IMG/VR virus record: IMGVR_UViG_3300009084_000003
Coordinates: 325 to 64,324 of that record
DNA length: 64,000 bases
Direction: 5' to 3' (one strand)
Origin: a virus
In this document: positions 3,744 through 20,883 of the stretch, piece by piece
Layout: the number at the start of each line of letters is the position of its first letter
Position numbering within the stretch: position 1 is the first letter of the stretch
The notes under the pieces: generated by a model
Database searches by the model: none
What the model was told of the DNA's origin: nothing
Seen by the model: the letters and a program-made list of their open reading frames with translations, nothing else
Translations under genes and position numbers: made by a program

Positions 3744-5072
3744 TTATGCTCCTGCCTGGGCGAATCGCCCGGTAAGACGGTTGGGGACCGTCATGGGAAT
3801 GTGGCATGGGTCGAAGTCGATGACCATGTCGCCAGCGGCGGTGACTTCCATCACCGTGCCGGTCAGGTCGAACAACTCGCCCGACCCGACACTGAGCCGC
3901 ACTCCGATTTCGATGCGGTCGCCTTCCTGGCGCTTGCCAGCGGTGTTGCCCGCCGTGATGGCGTAGGGCTGATTCGACTGGATGGGCGTCACGTTGTTGC
4001 GTGCGACCGCCTCGGTCTTGATGGCGTCTGCTCGCTGTTCAGGAGACATCGAGTTGATCTCCCCCGGATACAACGGGCGCACCTTGTGCCAGGTGCCAGC
4101 CGAGTACCGCTGCTGCACCCAACCGTCACCGACGGCGTGCTTGGAACGGATGTCACCCTCAGTCGGGGAGACTCTGGTCTTACCGACGACGACGCCTGCG
4201 GGCGGCGCGCCGCTCCTGACGACTGAGGAGGCTCCGGGCGGTGTTACTTTTCCCGTGACACCACCCCCGCCGCTGTAGCCGGAGGCGTACTCCCAGTCCC
4301 CAGACCACAACCGGGAGCGCTGCTTTGTCGGGTCTTCGACGGCGTGAACGCCGCTGAAGTCGAAGGTCGGGAACTGTTCGAGCTGCCCGTCGGCACCGAC
4401 GCACGCCAGGAACCCCTGAGGCGCTTCGATGACGTCGACTTCCTTGACGTCCTGGGCGATTCCCCCGGCGATGAACGCCGCACCAACAGCCTCTTTCGTC
4501 GAGGCGAACACGGTCGAACCTTCGACGGTGCGGGCGTAGTGCAGGGGGCTTGATCGCCCTCTGGCCATCCACAACGTGCGAGGCTCAATCGCCTGGTCAA
4601 TCCACGCGATTGCCCATGAGGCGTCGATCGCTTTCAACCCGTCAGCGAGCAGCGGGTAGTGGTGAATGGCGGCGAAGATCGCCTCCGAATCCACCTGCGC
4701 CTTGCGGTCCCACTTGAGTGTGTCGAACAGGTCGTCATCGTTGCGGACCATGCCGTTGTGGATGCCGATGATGTTCTCGTACCGAATGGGGTGGTTGTTG
4801 AGAGGATTTATCGGCGAGCCCTGTGTCGACGCTCGGGTGTGGATGAGGGCAGTCTGAGCTGAACGCCCGATGCCTTTCCGCCCGGCGAGGAATACCTCAG
4901 CCTTGCGTGCCTCCTTGCGCAGCTCGACGCGCCCTCGGGGACTGACGGTGCAAACTCCGGTGGCATCTTGGCCACGCTGTTGCATCATCCGTGCGAGAAC
5001 GAGTGTCATGCGTTCGGTGTCGATCTTGCCGAAATCCTTATCGCTGATTACGAATCCAGCTATTCCGCAAAT
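3744..5072 (-). CDS. class II (Ntn) glutamine amidotransferase with C-terminal extension; apparent ATT start
   Basis: CGIAG, RGQDATG, IHTRASTQGS, NNHP, HNGMVRN, VDSEAI; SD AAGGAAGG 8 nt before ATT-TGC. Confidence 0.85.
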   Translation of the reverse strand: MCGIAGFVISDKDFGKIDTERMTLVLARMMQQRGQDATGVCTVSPRGRVELRKEARKAEVFLAGRKGIGRSAQTALIHTRASTQGSPINPLNNHPIRYENIIGIHNGMVRNDDDLFDTLKWDRKAQVDSEAIFAAIHHYPLLADGLKAIDASWAIAWIDQAIEPRTLWMARGRSSPLHYARTVEGSTVFASTKEAVGAAFIAGGIAQDVKEVDVIEAPQGFLACVGADGQLEQFPTFDFSGVHAVEDPTKQRSRLWSGDWEYASGYSGGGGVTGKVTPPGASSVVRSGAPPAGVVVGKTRVSPTEGDIRSKHAVGDGWVQQRYSAGTWHKVRPLYPGEINSMSPEQRADAIKTEAVARNNVTPIQSNQPYAITAGNTAGKRQEGDRIEIGVRLSVGSGELFDLTGTVMEVTAAGDMVIDFDPCHIPMTVPNRLTGRFAQAGA

Positions 5073-5097: not shown

Positions 5098-6024
5098 TCA
5101 GTAGTTGACGAGGTGGTCGTTGAGAAGTTGTGCGGCCTGCTCGAAGCGCGGGCCGACTGGGAGGTAGGCGATGACGGCTCGCTTGAAGTCGTCGATGTGA
5201 GCGGCGTATTCGCCAACCCACCAGCCTCCCGGTCGGGTGGAGTCCATGCGCTCCATGTGTGCGCCCCAGCGGGTCAGGGCGACCGACAGACCCAGGTGCG
5301 CCCATAGGCGCTCAGGGTCACTCGGGGTGTTCCACAGTCGGTGTTCGACGGTGTGGTCGCGTTGCGAAAGCCACGAACCGCTGAAGCCGTAGATGCCGTG
5401 GGTGGGCTTTGTGTTGTAGCCGCGTATCCGCCCGCATCCGCCATCGGCGACGAGGGTCCAATCGTAGGCGGCGTAGGCGGCCTGGATGAGATTGAACCCA
5501 GCACCCGTGAGGTGCTGGACACGGTTGGCGTCGTCGCGGCCGACGTGAATGTGGTTGCCGCACGGGGTGACACCGTCGGGCATCCAATGCCCGTCGGCTT
5601 TCCACACCTCGACGAAAGCAATCCACTCGGCAACCGAATCCATGTCGGTTTCGGAGCGAACGTCGAGGATGCGAGACACCATCTCCACGCCAACCGTGGA
5701 GTCGTTCTGTGTCGCCATCAGCGGCCCACTGCGGGTGTATCTACATTCAACGCACCGGCAGTGGTATTCGTGCGCCCGGCCATGTGCGAGACCCAGGGCG
5801 CTGGCTCGTACGATGTACTCGGGCACACCACCGCTGGATGTCGGTGTGGGTCGCGGGCCGTCGCATTCTTCGCAGCACCAGTCGCCGTCGTCTTCTGTTC
5901 CCCCGTAATAACGGGGGAACATTTCGTACTCGATGCCGAAACGATGAATCGTTTGGATGACATTCGGGTCGGGCTCGTGTCCCCAGATTTTGAGCGCTAA
6001 CGGGGGCGCATCAGTGACTGTCAT
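5098..6024 (-). CDS. second, divergent amidoligase
   Basis: FGIEYE, DSTVGVEMVS, CGNHIHVG, TVEHRLWN motifs. Confidence 0.75.
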   Translation of the reverse strand: MTVTDAPPLALKIWGHEPDPNVIQTIHRFGIEYEMFPRYYGGTEDDGDWCCEECDGPRPTPTSSGGVPEYIVRASALGLAHGRAHEYHCRCVECRYTRSGPLMATQNDSTVGVEMVSRILDVRSETDMDSVAEWIAFVEVWKADGHWMPDGVTPCGNHIHVGRDDANRVQHLTGAGFNLIQAAYAAYDWTLVADGGCGRIRGYNTKPTHGIYGFSGSWLSQRDHTVEHRLWNTPSDPERLWAHLGLSVALTRWGAHMERMDSTRPGGWWVGEYAAHIDDFKRAVIAYLPVGPRFEQAAQLLNDHLVNY

Positions 6025-6937: not shown

Positions 6938-7299
6938 GACTCCCCGTATTCGGCTTGATAGGCCTCGTATTCGGCTTGATAGGCGTCCCAATCCTTGTCA
7001 GCGTCCAGGTGGTCGATGACGGCTTCGTCGAACATGTCCGATGCCTCGAAGCCCCGGTCGAACCGGACAACGGACACGAGTCCAATGTGTGTCTCGGTGA
7101 CCAGATAGTCATGGCCGTAGAAGTCGAGCAGCAGCGCGTGCCAGCACGACCCAGTCCAAGTATCACCACAAGTGTAGGTGTCCTCGAAATGCTTGTCCTC
7201 GGCTCGCTCCATCGCTGCCAGGTAGACGACCATGTCCTTCATCGGAATGGCCTTCATCGGTATGTCTTTGTACTCTGCGGCGATCAAGGTCACCTCCAA
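6928..7299 (-). CDS. acidic hypothetical protein (19-bp repeat with 21-bp period at 6945-6984 encodes YQAEY x2)
   Basis: ORF track plus repeat seen in sequence. Confidence 0.6.
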   Translation of the reverse strand: MEVTLIAAEYKDIPMKAIPMKDMVVYLAAMERAEDKHFEDTYTCGDTWTGSCWHALLLDFYGHDYLVTETHIGLVSVVRFDRGFEASDMFDEAVIDHLDADKDWDAYQAEYEAYQAEYGESWR

Positions 7300-7649
7300 T
7301 CAGTCATGTGGACCCAGGGCACGACAGCCGAGGAGGGAAGCCCCTGCTCTGAATCCACATCACCGATCAAAGGTCTGACCACAACCAGTCCCAATACGTC
7401 GCTAAGAGCATGACGATGGTGGGGATCACGAGTACCGGCCAGCTCATGCGCTGACCTTGTCGGTGAGCTGCAACTCGATCACGGTGAGGTAATAGAAGGT
7501 GCGCTGATACTGACGCAGCAGCCGACTCACCACCGACGTGGGCGTGTGAATCCAAGGCTGCGCCTCACGGGTGCAGCGGATCGCTGAGGCTACGTTTGCA
7601 CGTCGTTTACGGAGCGCCATGAGGTCGCTCGTGAATAGATGGTCTTGAT

Positions 7650-7934: not shown

Positions 7935-8050
7935 GCCCTGCACTGTTTCCTCCTCTGAAATCGAGCCTGGGGCGAAACGGCAATCGTCATCGTCTCGTTG
8001 CTTAGCAGCCCCCCGGTCAGCCTTGAAGCTGAGGGAACCCCAGGTAAGAA

Positions 8051-8248
8051 CTACCGGCTCGCTAGGGGCCGGGTGAGATTGTTGGCTGAGTTGACTTCAT
8101 CAGCCCAGTTGACGAGTCGTACCGCCTGAGTTCTACCGCCGATGATGCGGTACAGGTGGGTCTCCCCGTGAATCTGCCGGGCGGCTCGAACCGTCATCAT
8201 CGGCCGACCCTGGTCGTCGATATGAAGGGCTGCGCGTGGCGCTTTCAT
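8051..8248 (-). CDS. hypothetical protein
   Basis: strong SD AGGAGG before ATG 8248. Confidence 0.7.
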   Translation of the reverse strand: MKAPRAALHIDDQGRPMMTVRAARQIHGETHLYRIIGGRTQAVRLVNWADEVNSANNLTRPLASR

Positions 8249-8260
8249 GGTTCCTCCTAA

Positions 8261-8880
8261 GTGTCGATGTGATGACCTTCGGCTGAAGGGATGTTGACAA
8301 ACTCGCCGAACGTCGCTAGCAGACGATCGTCAATAGGTGGCCGTAGTCGTCCCACGCAAAGTAGCGTCGAACGCCGTTGGCGATTTCCATGTCGCACCTT
8401 CAAGTGGCGGAGATCATCCCGCCTTCAAGCTCCCCGACGGTTTCTATGCCGCTCACATGGGGGAGTGCTGAAGGTCATCACATCGAGACTCACGAAGAGT
8501 GCTCGTGAGAGAACACGGGGCGTGGGGCCGTCCCCGTGTTCTCACACCAACACTCGAAAGTCGAGTGGCCCGACACCTGGCCCATAGACCCGGCGTGTTA
8601 TTGGAACCACTTAGAGGCATCCGCTCTAGATCGGCCCTCCCCTCAACCCGGACAGTTCGTTGGATACATAACCTCATCTCTGCCGCATCCCGACTTGTTC
8701 AGGATGTTGGGCGCGGACTATTGGCGTCTTCACTTGAAGCCGAGTCGAGGCCCTCATCGCCCACTATTGAGCCGCTACCCCTCGGAAGGAGCGCATTAGC
8801 TCGGGACAGTCACGCTGTCAGGCGTCGAGACCACTCGTGAGAGCCTTCCAGGGCCGTTGTTTCCCTAGAAGACTCACACC
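8261..8880 (-). ncRNA. candidate large structured non-coding RNA or leader
   Basis: no convincing long ORF; 23-bp long-range inverted repeat and at least five further hairpins; strand inferred from neighbours. Confidence 0.4.
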
Positions 8881-8885
8881 AGCGG

Positions 8886-9188
8886 TCACGGATATACCGT
8901 GACGGTGTGCTGAGAGTAGACGTAGCACTTACCACCCTTGTCGGCTGGCTCCTCACTCAAGAACCGAGGAACCTCCCAAGTCCCTCGCCCATCGGCAATG
9001 ACCTCGATCGGGGAGTGGTAGTTGGCCTTCCGCCCGTTGAGGTGAATGACCACCTCGATCCGCTCTTCCTCCCCTTCCCGCCTGGCCCGCTTCGCGCACC
9101 CAGCGCAACTCCTCGACCTGTATCCGGTCAGAGCCCCATCCTCGCCCAGAGTATGGTCGTGGGTGTATCCGAAGTCGTCAAGACTCAC
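8886..9188 (-). CDS. hypothetical protein (FGYTHxH...CAGC paralog 1)
   Basis: GTGA overlap with upstream gene. Confidence 0.7.
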   Translation of the reverse strand: MSLDDFGYTHDHTLGEDGALTGYRSRSCAGCAKRARREGEEERIEVVIHLNGRKANYHSPIEVIADGRGTWEVPRFLSEEPADKGGKCYVYSQHTVTVYP

Positions 9189-9532
9189 TTCTCCTCCTTC
9201 TCGACCAGTATGGAACTCGAGTAGGCCGTTCGGTAAACAGCGTTGACCCGCTCGGTCCCCACATAGGTGACCACTGGCGGGATGAACTCCCTGGGCTGAT
9301 TGTGATTCTCGTCCCGCTCGTCACACCCAGCGCAACCCGACCTGTAACGCGCCAGAGTCCCATCCTCGTTCAGAGCATGGGTGTGGGTGTACCCGAAGGT
9401 GTCGATCTCGGGCTGGCTCAACTTCCACTGAAGGTAAGCCTCCTGCCCCTGCACCGTCGAAAGGTCAAACCCCGAGGTGCTCACAAACTCCACCCCCAAC
9501 CGCTCGCCGCTCATGGCAACCTCTCGACCCAC
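9185..9532 (-). CDS. hypothetical protein (FGYTHxH...CAGC paralog 2)
   Basis: shares an ~30-aa block with 8886..9188. Confidence 0.7.
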   Translation of the reverse strand: MGREVAMSGERLGVEFVSTSGFDLSTVQGQEAYLQWKLSQPEIDTFGYTHTHALNEDGTLARYRSGCAGCDERDENHNQPREFIPPVVTYVGTERVNAVYRTAYSSSILVEKEEK

Positions 9533-10219: not shown

Positions 10220-10330
10220 CAAAGCCCTCCTCAGAGCTAGTAGGTACCCCCTAGAGAGACCTCTCCACAGAAAGGGGAGGGGGGAGGGGGGAGAGGTACC
10301 CCCCCGGATTCCTTACTCATTTCTCCCGGA

Positions 10331-10585
10331 TCGAACAAACGTTCGCTAGGGGTCAATCGAACAAACGTTCGAGACCGCCCTATCGAACAAACGTTCGACG
10401 AGAACAACTAAAGCCGATCGAACAAACGTTCGACTGACAGCGATCGAACGAGTGTTCGATGAGAACAACTAAGTCGATCGAACAGAGGTTCGACCAAAGC
10501 CTATCGAACAAACGTACTGCCGGCCGGAATCGAACAAACGTACGACTGCAACCTAGATGACCTAGGGAATCGAACAACCGTTCGA
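10331..10585. promoter_or_regulatory. tandem array of nine LexA/SOS boxes (TCGAAC-N4-GTTCGA)
   Basis: starts at 10331, 10357, 10383, 10418, 10444, 10478, 10504, 10530, 10570; six perfect, two with one mismatch, one degenerate. Confidence 0.85.
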
Positions 10586-10597
10586 CTGCAACCTTCA

Positions 10598-10623
10598 CCA
10601 TTCGGTAAACAGTGTTGACCGAA
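10598..10623. repeat. 26-bp palindromic direct repeat CCATTCGGTAAACAGTGTTGACCGAA, left copy
   Basis: identical to 12016-12041. Confidence 0.95.
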
Positions 10624-10862
10624 CGCCACGACGCAACGAAGCGCACCGACGACAATGGCGACACCAAGGGCACCGGAACTACGCGGACCGGGGCAACGAA
10701 CGAGCAAGGGCAACGAACGGGCAAGGGGAGAACCGAGCCGCAGGAGCGAGCCGACGAGCAACGAACAGACAATGGCGCGCCTAGGTGCACCGAAACTGCG
10801 CGGCACTCTGATAGCGTTCCGAACTGGTGGTCCGAACAGACGAGGCCCGCCGAGAGGATGAC

Positions 10863-12014
10863 ATGTCGAACCGATCAACACTGACGAGAAACGCAGTCCG
10901 TTTCTCTGAGCAGACAGACCACGAAGCGCGGGTGCTTGAGAGCGAAGAACTTGCCGAGTTGGAATACCGAGGGGTGAACACGCGGAGCTACTCGCTACGC
11001 ACGTCTAAGGCGTTCCGAACGAGCGAATGGGCCTACTTGACCGAACAGGATTTAGTGGACGCTACAGCCGACTACACGGCACGCCTTGAGGCTGTGAAGC
11101 GTGACGTCAAGGCGAAGCGACTGACAGGAGCTACGGCGAAGAGAGCACTCCGCAACGCAGAGCACGCGCTCACCGTTGCCGAGCGTCAGACACTCGACAG
11201 CGTGACCCGCGAGGACGACACTGACTTCGACCCGCTGATCGCTGATCTCATCATCGGCAAGTGTGCTACCGGGCAGTACGTGATGCCCAGTAGCGACGCC
11301 ATCCTGATCACGTCGAAAGACCCGATGGCAGTCACGAAGTGGTCCGCGGACCTTGAACACGCGGCGACGATGTTCCTTCATGCTCATGGCGTGCGCACTA
11401 CTGCCCGACCCGACGTGTTGCCACGGTACGCCACGCGACGTCGTGCGATGAGCGATGACGTCGCATTCAAGGGTACGGCTCGGTATGCCCTTCCCAAGCC
11501 ATGCCGAGTCGGCTCTCTGGGCAATGAGCCCGCGGAACTGGGCAACGTCGAAACGCACGTCACGGAGCTACTCGTCACGCCGCGTTTCGTGCTTGTTGAC
11601 GGTGTGCTGACACTGAACAACGGGCGCGTTCGTAAGGCGTGGCGCGGCCACCGTTCGATCCTCGTTCGACTGTCGTCAAGGCGAAGCGCGAGCGAGACGA
11701 CGCGCAAGGCGAGGCGCGCCCAGTCAGTCGCGACCGACAAGGTGGCGAAGCGTGGCCCGGCCCGCGATCCGTGGAACCTTTCGCCGCGGAGCATTCCCGC
11801 CCGACTCAAGGCGACGACGGGCGCTACCGAACTTGCCCTACGCCTTGAGTCGGTACTGCGCACGTCGACCTACGGCGCGACCCTCTCGCTGAGCGATGGG
11901 ACAACGGTGGCACTCACCGACGTTTCGTTGAGTACAGCCCAGTATCGGGACGTCGCCTATCCGGTCCGCGAACTGTCACGCCGCGCCGCGCTCGCCGGGC
12001 TCACTGTCGAGTAG
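10863..12014 (+). CDS. orphan basic protein (383 aa), function unknown
   Basis: SD GAGAGG before ATG 10863; long ORF; no family recognised. Confidence 0.8.
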   Translation: MSNRSTLTRNAVRFSEQTDHEARVLESEELAELEYRGVNTRSYSLRTSKAFRTSEWAYLTEQDLVDATADYTARLEAVKRDVKAKRLTGATAKRALRNAEHALTVAERQTLDSVTREDDTDFDPLIADLIIGKCATGQYVMPSSDAILITSKDPMAVTKWSADLEHAATMFLHAHGVRTTARPDVLPRYATRRRAMSDDVAFKGTARYALPKPCRVGSLGNEPAELGNVETHVTELLVTPRFVLVDGVLTLNNGRVRKAWRGHRSILVRLSSRRSASETTRKARRAQSVATDKVAKRGPARDPWNLSPRSIPARLKATTGATELALRLESVLRTSTYGATLSLSDGTTVALTDVSLSTAQYRDVAYPVRELSRRAALAGLTVE

Positions 12015-12015
12015 G

Positions 12016-12041
12016 CCATTCGGTAAACAGTGTTGACCGAA
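12016..12041. repeat. 26-bp palindromic direct repeat, right copy
   Basis: identical to 10598-10623. Confidence 0.95.
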
Positions 12042-19525: not shown

Positions 19526-20506
19526 GTGGCAAATCCAGCATTCATTCGTGACGGCGAAGACTGGGACGATGGTTGGTCCCGCGCCCCGCATGGCCTGTGG
19601 ACCCTCGACATCCCCAACGGGGCCAAAGTGCTACTCGGGTGGCTCCATTCGCACTCCGGCGCGTTCCTGAACGGCGTGACGGTGAACCAAGCACGCCGGG
19701 CTGTTGGGTCGTCCTCGATCAAGGTCTGGTTTGAGTCGCTAGAGGCTGCCGGGTTCATCGAGATCGCCCGCAAAGACAACGGCACGCAGTCTCAGTTCAC
19801 CCTCAAGATGGCCCCCTGGAAGGCCCTCATCGGCAGGCCGGACCGCGCCGAAATTAGCGCGGTAACCGCGCCGAAATCGGCGCGCACAGAAGAACACCTA
19901 GAAGATCACTGTTCTTCTTCACTTCGTTCAGAAGAAGAACTCAACGCGGAAAGTCGCGTAGATACTCAAGAGCGCATCACGCCAACGACGATCGCTCGGG
20001 AATACTGGGACTGGCACGTCGAGGATCGCGGCAAGCCACCCACCCAGACCTTCCTTGCCCTCCAGAGCATCGCGAAAGCACTCACGAAAGCTGGGTATCA
20101 ACCCGATGAGATCATTGACGCGATGAAGGTCGCCAAGGTGATGACCGCCAAAGCCCTCACTGACGTTGCGGCCGAGCAGAAGCACAAGCGCGACGACACG
20201 CCGAACACGCAGGCGATCCCAGCAGCGATCGTCAGGGCGTTCGCGAAGTGTGAGTCGTGGTTCGAGCGGAGGGACTTGATGACCGGGGCGTCGCGGACAC
20301 ACTGGATGCGCCTGTGTGCTTCGCAGGTGAACTTCGGCTACGGGCCGGGTGAGACCATGTTGCGCATGGCGGTCGCGCTTCGCACCGGCAACGCGACCAC
20401 CTTCGCTCTCAGTGATGCGAAGGTCGAGCGTTTCAACGGTGAACTCGCCGACTACCCCGACGCGATGGAACGGGCGTACGTCAACCAGGCTTGGAGCGCA
20501 CGATGA
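19526..20506 (+). CDS. phage replication initiator with N-terminal HTH
   Basis: GWSRAP..LW..DIPNGAKVLLGWL...LEAAGFIE; upstream of helicase. Confidence 0.65.
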   Translation: MANPAFIRDGEDWDDGWSRAPHGLWTLDIPNGAKVLLGWLHSHSGAFLNGVTVNQARRAVGSSSIKVWFESLEAAGFIEIARKDNGTQSQFTLKMAPWKALIGRPDRAEISAVTAPKSARTEEHLEDHCSSSLRSEEELNAESRVDTQERITPTTIAREYWDWHVEDRGKPPTQTFLALQSIAKALTKAGYQPDEIIDAMKVAKVMTAKALTDVAAEQKHKRDDTPNTQAIPAAIVRAFAKCESWFERRDLMTGASRTHWMRLCASQVNFGYGPGETMLRMAVALRTGNATTFALSDAKVERFNGELADYPDAMERAYVNQAWSAR

Positions 20507-20883
20507 GCGACCGGGAACTCCTCATGCGTATCACCGCCAAGGATTTCGAGATCACCGCCATCCGCGGTTCGGGGCCGGGAGGACAACACCGCAACAAGGT
20601 GTCGTCGGGCCAGCGGTTCAAGCACAAGGCGTCGGGCGCTGTCGGGGAAGCCACCGACGACCGTAGTCAACTCGCCAACAAGCAGCAGGCGTTCAGGCGC
20701 TGCGTTGCTACCAAAGAGTTCCAGGCGTGGTTTCGTATCGCCGTTGCTGAGGCGCAGGGTCGCCCGAGCACCGAGTCGCTGGTTACTGCCGCGATGAAGC
20801 CGGGCAACATCGACACCCAGATTCTGGTCGACGATCGTTGGGTCACCATCGACCCCTCCCTGCTCGAAGGCGACGAATCGTGA
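20503..20883 (+). CDS. class I release-factor (RF-1/ArfB-like) GGQ peptidyl-tRNA hydrolase domain protein
   Basis: RGSGPGGQHRNKVSSG...RSQLANKQQA. Confidence 0.85.
   Translation: MSDRELLMRITAKDFEITAIRGSGPGGQHRNKVSSGQRFKHKASGAVGEATDDRSQLANKQQAFRRCVATKEFQAWFRIAVAEAQGRPSTESLVTAAMKPGNIDTQILVDDRWVTIDPSLLEGDES

Follow-up and report, generated by a model that had tools for sequence, protein, structure and literature searches.

The gene-free region and its setting

The window, by which we mean the whole stretch of DNA analysed, covers 64 kb of a 67,272-base IMG/VR virus record. A gap between minus-strand genes at 8249–8885 sits in a leftward arm made of small minus-strand genes, upstream of an amidotransferase and amidoligase-like block. 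An earlier note on this DNA had described it as the longest gene-free stretch of the arm; the gap is there, but a control region at about 10223–10860 is equally long. The portal and capsid of the phage match PHROGs 776 and 777, its closest cultured relatives, phages of Gordonia, Arthrobacter and Microbacterium, are distant (24–28% capsid identity), and a WhiB domain is encoded; from these features together we infer an actinobacterial host for this uncultured phage. Since neither the anchor gene used below nor the element E3 was found in the prokaryotic genomes searched, no host is named. The elements of the region, hereafter the cassette, and its flanking gene are:

8886–9188, minus strand: early gene upstream of the gap, encoding 100 aa of no family, with a stop codon that runs into the base of H1
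8826–8890, minus strand: H1, a 28-bp hairpin with an RNase III-type motif (U8881-A8835, G.G mismatch)
8562–8837, minus strand: D1, a conserved fold of about 276 nt
8837–8819/8579–8562, minus strand: P1, the 18-bp closing helix of D1, which competes with the base of H1
8819–8805, minus strand: small hairpin of D1
8802–8769, minus strand: variable hairpin of D1, with three double changes
8750–8740/8651–8641, minus strand: 11-bp long-range helix of D1, with two double changes
8667–8662/8622–8617, minus strand: candidate pseudoknot of D1, an invariant 6-bp pairing
8497–8555, minus strand: H2, a second RNase III-type hairpin (U8549-A8503, G.G)
8467–8498, minus strand: 5′ strand of the 32-bp D2-enclosing stem
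8268–8480, minus strand: D2, about 210 nt, the best-supported fold of the cassette
8252–8283, minus strand: 3′ strand of the D2-enclosing stem, including the Shine-Dalgarno sequence of the next gene (8257–8253)

Long stems and folding energy

The stems that the earlier note had listed were all found, several as parts of longer ones. The 8261–83/8467–89 stem, with 21 Watson-Crick pairs in 23, extends to 8252–8283/8467–8498; the 8509–43 stem forms the top of the 24-bp hairpin 8497–8555; the bulged stem at 8837–78 belongs to the 28-bp hairpin 8826–8890; and both of these hairpins have as their 3′ strand the 10-mer found at 8502 and 8834. The small stems at 8489–8509 and 8551–67 are present too, but cannot coexist with the longer stems because they overlap them, and L026, one of the related lineages introduced below, lacks most of their sequence.

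The 661-nt region folds better than its shuffles: z is −6.2 for the minus strand and −3.4 for the plus strand, each against 20 shuffles. In a 150-nt scan of the minus strand the signal peaks at 8401–8625 and 8776–8925, with the middle (8551–8850) at background. The folding signal of the gap comes from the long stems; stripped of their closing stems, the D1 and D2 cores do no better than shuffles (z +1.5 and −1.1, respectively), and the case for the cores therefore rests on conservation and covariation.

Homologous loci and conservation

Homologs were recovered using the upstream 100-aa gene and a 308-aa gene at 5098–6024 as anchors. This gave two identical copies of the region, a strain variant (L023/L037; L023 is 96% identical to the window) and the lineages L026, L027/L038, L032/L033 and L039/L049, with the homologs occupying the same position. 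In a quick protein tree the cassette lineages form one weakly supported clade (SH-aLRT 89), and the corresponding gene of L048 falls in a sister group (80). No D2 or E3 match was found in the more distant relatives L030, L034/35, L036, L040 and L046, so phages of the wider family can do without the cassette. Two further relatives, outside the sequence comparison, have a gap at the same position.

Identity to L026 is 83.5% for D1, 79% for E3 and 66% for D2, and 60–76% for four neighbouring genes. Rfam 15 at gathering threshold gave no match in the window, and searching up to E 10 returned weak, unrelated matches only; in six homologous loci no match lay over the cassette. ARAGORN made no tRNA or tmRNA call at the cassette, and BLAST against cultured phages found no match. 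DNA patterns for D1, D2 and E3 run against IMG/VR gave none, one AT-rich chance match (L045) and at least 116 matches; 80 of the latter were scored with the D2 model, and all scored as chance. Relatives by capsid or anchor gene were searched over their whole virus records, most of which are fragments, with no notable DNA or model match. As no further copies appeared among the IMG/VR matches listed or in prokaryotic genomes, the RNA family is, judged by these searches, either rare or too divergent for pattern searches.

The proposal of a new structured region was thus borne out: it is conserved and non-coding, has no Rfam match, and its stems are conserved and covary across lineages. We regard it as almost certain that real conserved non-coding structure lies in the gap.

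Differences between L023 and the window cluster in two minus-strand hairpins, at 8769–8802 and about 8345–8385, and the remainder is almost identical. In the loop of the 8769–8802 hairpin the window has the same sequence as the more distant L026. The clustering and the shared loop suggest exchange between phages.

A family of stems with an RNase III signature

A stem scan found similar 24–32-bp hairpins between ordinary early genes, both in the window and in its relatives. The example in the window is:

7292–7374, minus strand: third intergenic hairpin (U7362-A7304, G.G), flanked by ordinary early genes; its 3′ strand contains the next Shine-Dalgarno sequence

Across 15 intergenic hairpins from five lineages a motif recurs at fixed spacing: a U-A pair (15/15), then the G.G mismatch (14/15), then a G-C pair five columns on (15/15) with an A-U pair adjoining (11/15). 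The A-U position lies seven columns from the U-A, and is a G-U wobble in three further hairpins; a G stands at the next inward position on both strands. The hairpins share a 22-bp core, with 89.7% of cells paired, and enclosing stems are 25–37 bp long. Because the hairpins were taken from the stem scan they had to be paired, and the information lies in the fixed motif alone. In the 64-kb window the motif occurs three times, always on the early minus strand, with no occurrence on the plus strand or in five shuffles.

The motif resembles a pair of RNase III half-sites. An A-U pair lies at the Q157 contact of such half-sites (PMC6212723, PMC1540722), and the two A-U pairs of the motif span eight positions, which equals the spacing of the two Q157-contact pairs in an RNase III double cut. 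Aquifex RNase III prefers A-U / G-C / A-U (PMC3074117), a preference that the inner G of the motif matches. The stems are near-continuous duplexes of about two turns, as expected of RNase III substrates, and show the proximal-box preferences on both half-sites (8-bp span), more weakly in the D2-enclosing stem; the consensus used is that of the E. coli, Aquifex and Bacillus enzymes, from which the host's own may differ. From this consensus H1 is predicted to be cut at 8877|8876 and 8838|8837, and H2 at 8545|8544 and 8506|8505. The motif register thereby places the predicted 3′ cut of H1, 8838|8837, at the first base of P1. Based on these observations, we consider RNase III processing of the cassette stems to be probable.

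D1 and its competing closing helix

The 5′ strand of P1 is at the same time the lower 3′ strand of H1, and both of these mutually exclusive pairings are kept in all five lineages. P1 contains two compensatory changes, C-G to U-A at the first pair and U-A to C-G at the fifth. When the closing stems are left out, the D1 core is still homologous to its counterparts in L026 (z 36) and L039 (z 4), and has no demonstrable homology to the RNAs in the D1 slot of L027 and L032 (z under 1).

H2, D2 and the enclosing stem

H2 is missing from L026; it occurs in L032, and in L027 it stands ahead of the second element. The 32-bp stem that follows is predicted to mask the ribosome-binding site of the next gene. 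It fits the RNase III consensus in two conserved registers, so the ends of D2 are uncertain by about 8 nt.

D2 is composed of a variable 5′ hairpin, a hairpin at 8423–8406 with a GAUC loop, two stacked helices, and a three-way junction from which a G.G-containing arm and a CUAG-loop hairpin (8321–8315) extend. In an alignment of five sequences from four lineages, 32 of 54 pairs are changed on both sides, compared with 5–8 in slid controls, and 87% of cells are paired, compared with 37–47%. None of 500 shuffles did as well, a count that is not a p-value since the alignments, covering four to five lineages for the cassette as a whole, are small and the sequences related. The D2 core, again without closing stems, is homologous to those of L026 (z 15), L032 (z 6) and L048 (z 4.5), and the first D2 of L027 is linked weakly, through L032 (z 2.8) and by shared motifs and fold.

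The GAUC loop is kept in five lineages. The bases flanking the CUAG loop stay complementary (G/C, U/A, U/G), and L048 lacks this loop. Self-association of D2 through its two palindromic loops is a tentative idea, which we hold to be rather unlikely; the closing pair of an intramolecular tetraloop may explain the CUAG flanks equally well. The CUAG loop was also considered as an amber anticodon loop and rejected, position 33 being G in three sequences and a tRNA body being absent.

E3 and the variable slot

Downstream of D2 lie a slot of variable content and a third conserved RNA:

8051–8248, minus strand: 65-aa ORF in the variable slot, absent in L026 and L032
L023:4247–4340: slot insert of 97 nt replacing the 65-aa ORF, with a T-arm-like hairpin and an acceptor-like strand at its end
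7950–8045, minus strand: E3, a covarying three-way junction of about 96 nt

E3 is present in all five cassette lineages, adjoins D2 in L026 and L032, always lies just upstream of a ribosome-binding site, and has no Rfam match. The L023 insert is possibly a decayed tRNA; ARAGORN makes no call on it, and it folds no better than shuffles. An 11-nt motif is common to this insert and the second L027 element, and a 22-nt copy of the 5′ end of E3 lies at L023:2883–2904.

Modularity

The contents of the stems are exchanged between lineages. L048 has a D2-like RNA and no D1; in L039 a D1 homolog is accompanied by another RNA where D2 would lie; in L027 a stem of this kind also encloses a second, unrelated RNA. 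RNAs in such stems elsewhere are:

L027:7297–7575
L048:3255–3480 and 4130–4360
L039:1381–1614

The second L048 element repeats the layout of a hairpin with a competing closing helix, around an unrelated core. No covarying helix joins D1 to D2. At the sequence level, H1, D1, H2 and D2 are independently varying modules. The earlier note's suggestion of a single large RNA like ROOL or GOLLD is not supported, given this independence, and several of its strongest stems belong to a putative processing-site family. The gap is probably not one large RNA; it appears to hold two folded RNAs bracketed by RNase III-type stems.

Proposed mechanism and alternatives

We propose, with a probability of roughly 55%, that the region is a T7-like, RNase III-processed cassette of the early transcript that releases two stable trans-acting RNAs. 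A leftward early transcript, expected from the gene layout, would run through the region. H1 would fold first and be cut by RNase III, and the freed strand would pair with the 3′ end of D1; were the cut late, P1 could form at the expense of the base of H1, and the site would be lost. D1 would then start at about 8837, sealed by its own 18-bp helix. Cutting of H2 and the D2-enclosing stem would next free D1, with a short tail, and D2, and the cut in the latter stem would unmask the ribosome-binding site of the next gene. Being compact and having paired ends, D1 and D2 should be stable. They would act in trans early in infection, most likely on a host RNA-binding protein or complex that they bind or titrate; D2 might do so as a homo-oligomer held together through its two palindromic loops. 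As guide or antisense RNAs against the phage's own genome they find little to pair with (longest match 13 nt, not above shuffles), and since such a match and conserved peptides are both lacking, a structural role is the most likely.

A more far-reaching version, in which pre-rRNA-like RNase III stems serve as a platform for exchangeable RNAs, with D2 a protein-free oligomer built through its two palindromic loops and D1 a pseudoknotted catalytic RNA or mimic of a host machine during early takeover, strikes us as doubtful. A purely cis-acting role is likewise unlikely. The stems would then be processing sites, and D1, D2 and E3 leaders that stabilise the downstream early mRNA or control its translation, in keeping with the sequestration of the next Shine-Dalgarno sequence by the D2-enclosing stem and several hairpins and with the position of E3, which always ends just 5′ of a ribosome-binding site. 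However, D2 is kept although the following gene differs or is absent between phages, a cut on both strands would separate D1 and D2 from any mRNA, and D1 is more conserved than the neighbouring genes.

That the region is one RNA of 630–730 nt (H1 to D2, or to E3), folding as a unit like ROOL, GOLLD and OLE, is improbable. The order D1, D2, E3 is kept in five lineages, the three are contiguous in L026 and L032, and the size is near that of ROOL (about 550–600 nt; PMC12990946); yet D1 and D2 share no covarying helix and are separated by H2, E3 can be preceded by inserted genes, modules are swapped or occur singly, and Rfam gives no match. We give equally little credence to the idea that the motif stems are bound and not cut, the binder being an antitermination or dsRNA-binding factor of the phage or its host and the switch between H1 and P1 a co-transcriptional timer. 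Such a switch would account for a strand that has kept, in all five lineages, two partners with which it cannot pair at once, and RNase III binding is separable from cleavage (PMC1540722); but the motif has the two-fold symmetry and the spacing of RNase III half-sites, and P1 starts just where the cut is predicted. Small peptides, encoded by a 24-codon ORF inside D2 or by 74- to 113-codon ORFs on either strand, are very improbable and largely refuted: the 24-codon ORF has a Shine-Dalgarno-like sequence in the window and an equal-length counterpart in L032, but its frame is interrupted by a stop (codon 16 of the L023 version, codon 5 of the L026 version), it shows no residue conservation with the L032 ORF, and reading frames elsewhere across the region are broken by indels.

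Comparison with known systems

Processing of early phage mRNA by RNase III has a precedent at R1.1 of T7 (PMC8708148), and RNase III sites are also described in phage SP82 and B. subtilis scRNA (PMC4838370). Like the T7 sites (R1.1 and its neighbours) and those of SP82, the cassette stems are long intergenic hairpins of an early polycistronic transcript, with symmetric proximal-box half-sites and often with the downstream Shine-Dalgarno sequence within the stem. They differ in bracketing conserved structured RNAs, where the T7 and SP82 sites merely separate cistrons, and in their near-invariant G.G mismatch. With pre-rRNA leader-trailer helices and the B. subtilis scRNA precursor (PMC11404451, PMC4838370) the cassette shares a long helix around a stable RNA and release by RNase III, the latter predicted here; unlike in those systems, the enclosed RNAs are 200–290 nt long, are encoded by a phage, can be exchanged and belong to no known family.

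ROOL, GOLLD, OLE, ARRPOF and manA RNAs are structured, ligandless as far as is known, and self-associate by kissing loops or palindromic pairing (PMC12990946; bioRxiv 10.64898/2026.07.01.735769). The two palindromic loops of D2 may be a likeness at the level of sequence, whereas the cassette has no Rfam 15 match and consists of two small RNAs in place of one of 550–830 nt. Mycobacteriophages L5 and D29 make abundant early non-coding RNAs (PMC5712189). The cassette resembles those of L5, D29 and StarStuff (PMC5712189) in being non-coding and in its actinobacteriophage setting on a presumed early leftward transcript; however, those RNAs are promoter-proximal, and nothing in the phage collection matches the cassette.

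D2 is also similar in layout to large SRP RNA of the Bacillus scRNA type, with a closing helix, two 5′ hairpins, a long helix, two terminal hairpins and an RNase III-type precursor, but it lacks the GNRA-capped helix 8 motif, a conserved 5′ loop pairing and an Rfam SRP match. This candidate was rejected because the symmetric loop and GNRA tetraloop of helix 8 and the Alu loop-loop pairing are absent from the D2 alignment. The 3′ end of D1 is similar to RNase P RNA by eye, and was set aside for want of a consistent P4 pairing across lineages or an Rfam match. A tRNA or tmRNA was rejected on the absence of an ARAGORN call and of conservation in the small ORF, and group I intron and HDV-like readings were dropped by eye, their signature motifs being absent. 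On sequence criteria, then, the cassette falls outside ROOL, GOLLD, SRP, RNase P, tmRNA and any Rfam 15 family.

The cassette thus adds two covariation-supported RNA folds (three with E3) that are new to Rfam 15; a prior listing in a survey of viral structured RNAs (PMC10690425) is possible. The predicted ends of D1 and D2 are precise enough for synthesis and testing. The findings suggest that uncultured actinophage-like viruses may release stable early RNAs as bacteria release rRNA, and swap them like accessory genes, which bears on the role of the abundant non-coding RNAs that phages make early in infection. Further such cassettes can be sought with the G.G-containing stem motif as a marker.

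Neighbouring genes and repeats

The two genes upstream of H1 (8886–9532, minus strand) are tandem paralogs that have in common a repeat of 66 nt (80% identity). A palindromic element, about 30 nt long, occurs in three copies (9217–9248, 10589–10620 and 12007–12038), two of which flank a 383-aa gene, and a near-palindromic repeat array lies at 10320–10594, within a divergent control region. The 383-aa gene (10863–12014, plus strand) has no family and is conserved: all relatives whose sequence extends that far have a counterpart of 330–400 aa in the same place. Because its single-sequence structure model is poor (pLDDT 44), we make no claim of it as a partner. At 20491–20883 (plus strand), 12 kb away from the cassette, a 130-aa PrfH/ArfB-like protein with an RF-1 domain and a GGQ motif (Pfam E 1.8e-14) is encoded, which is a possible ribosome-rescue factor.
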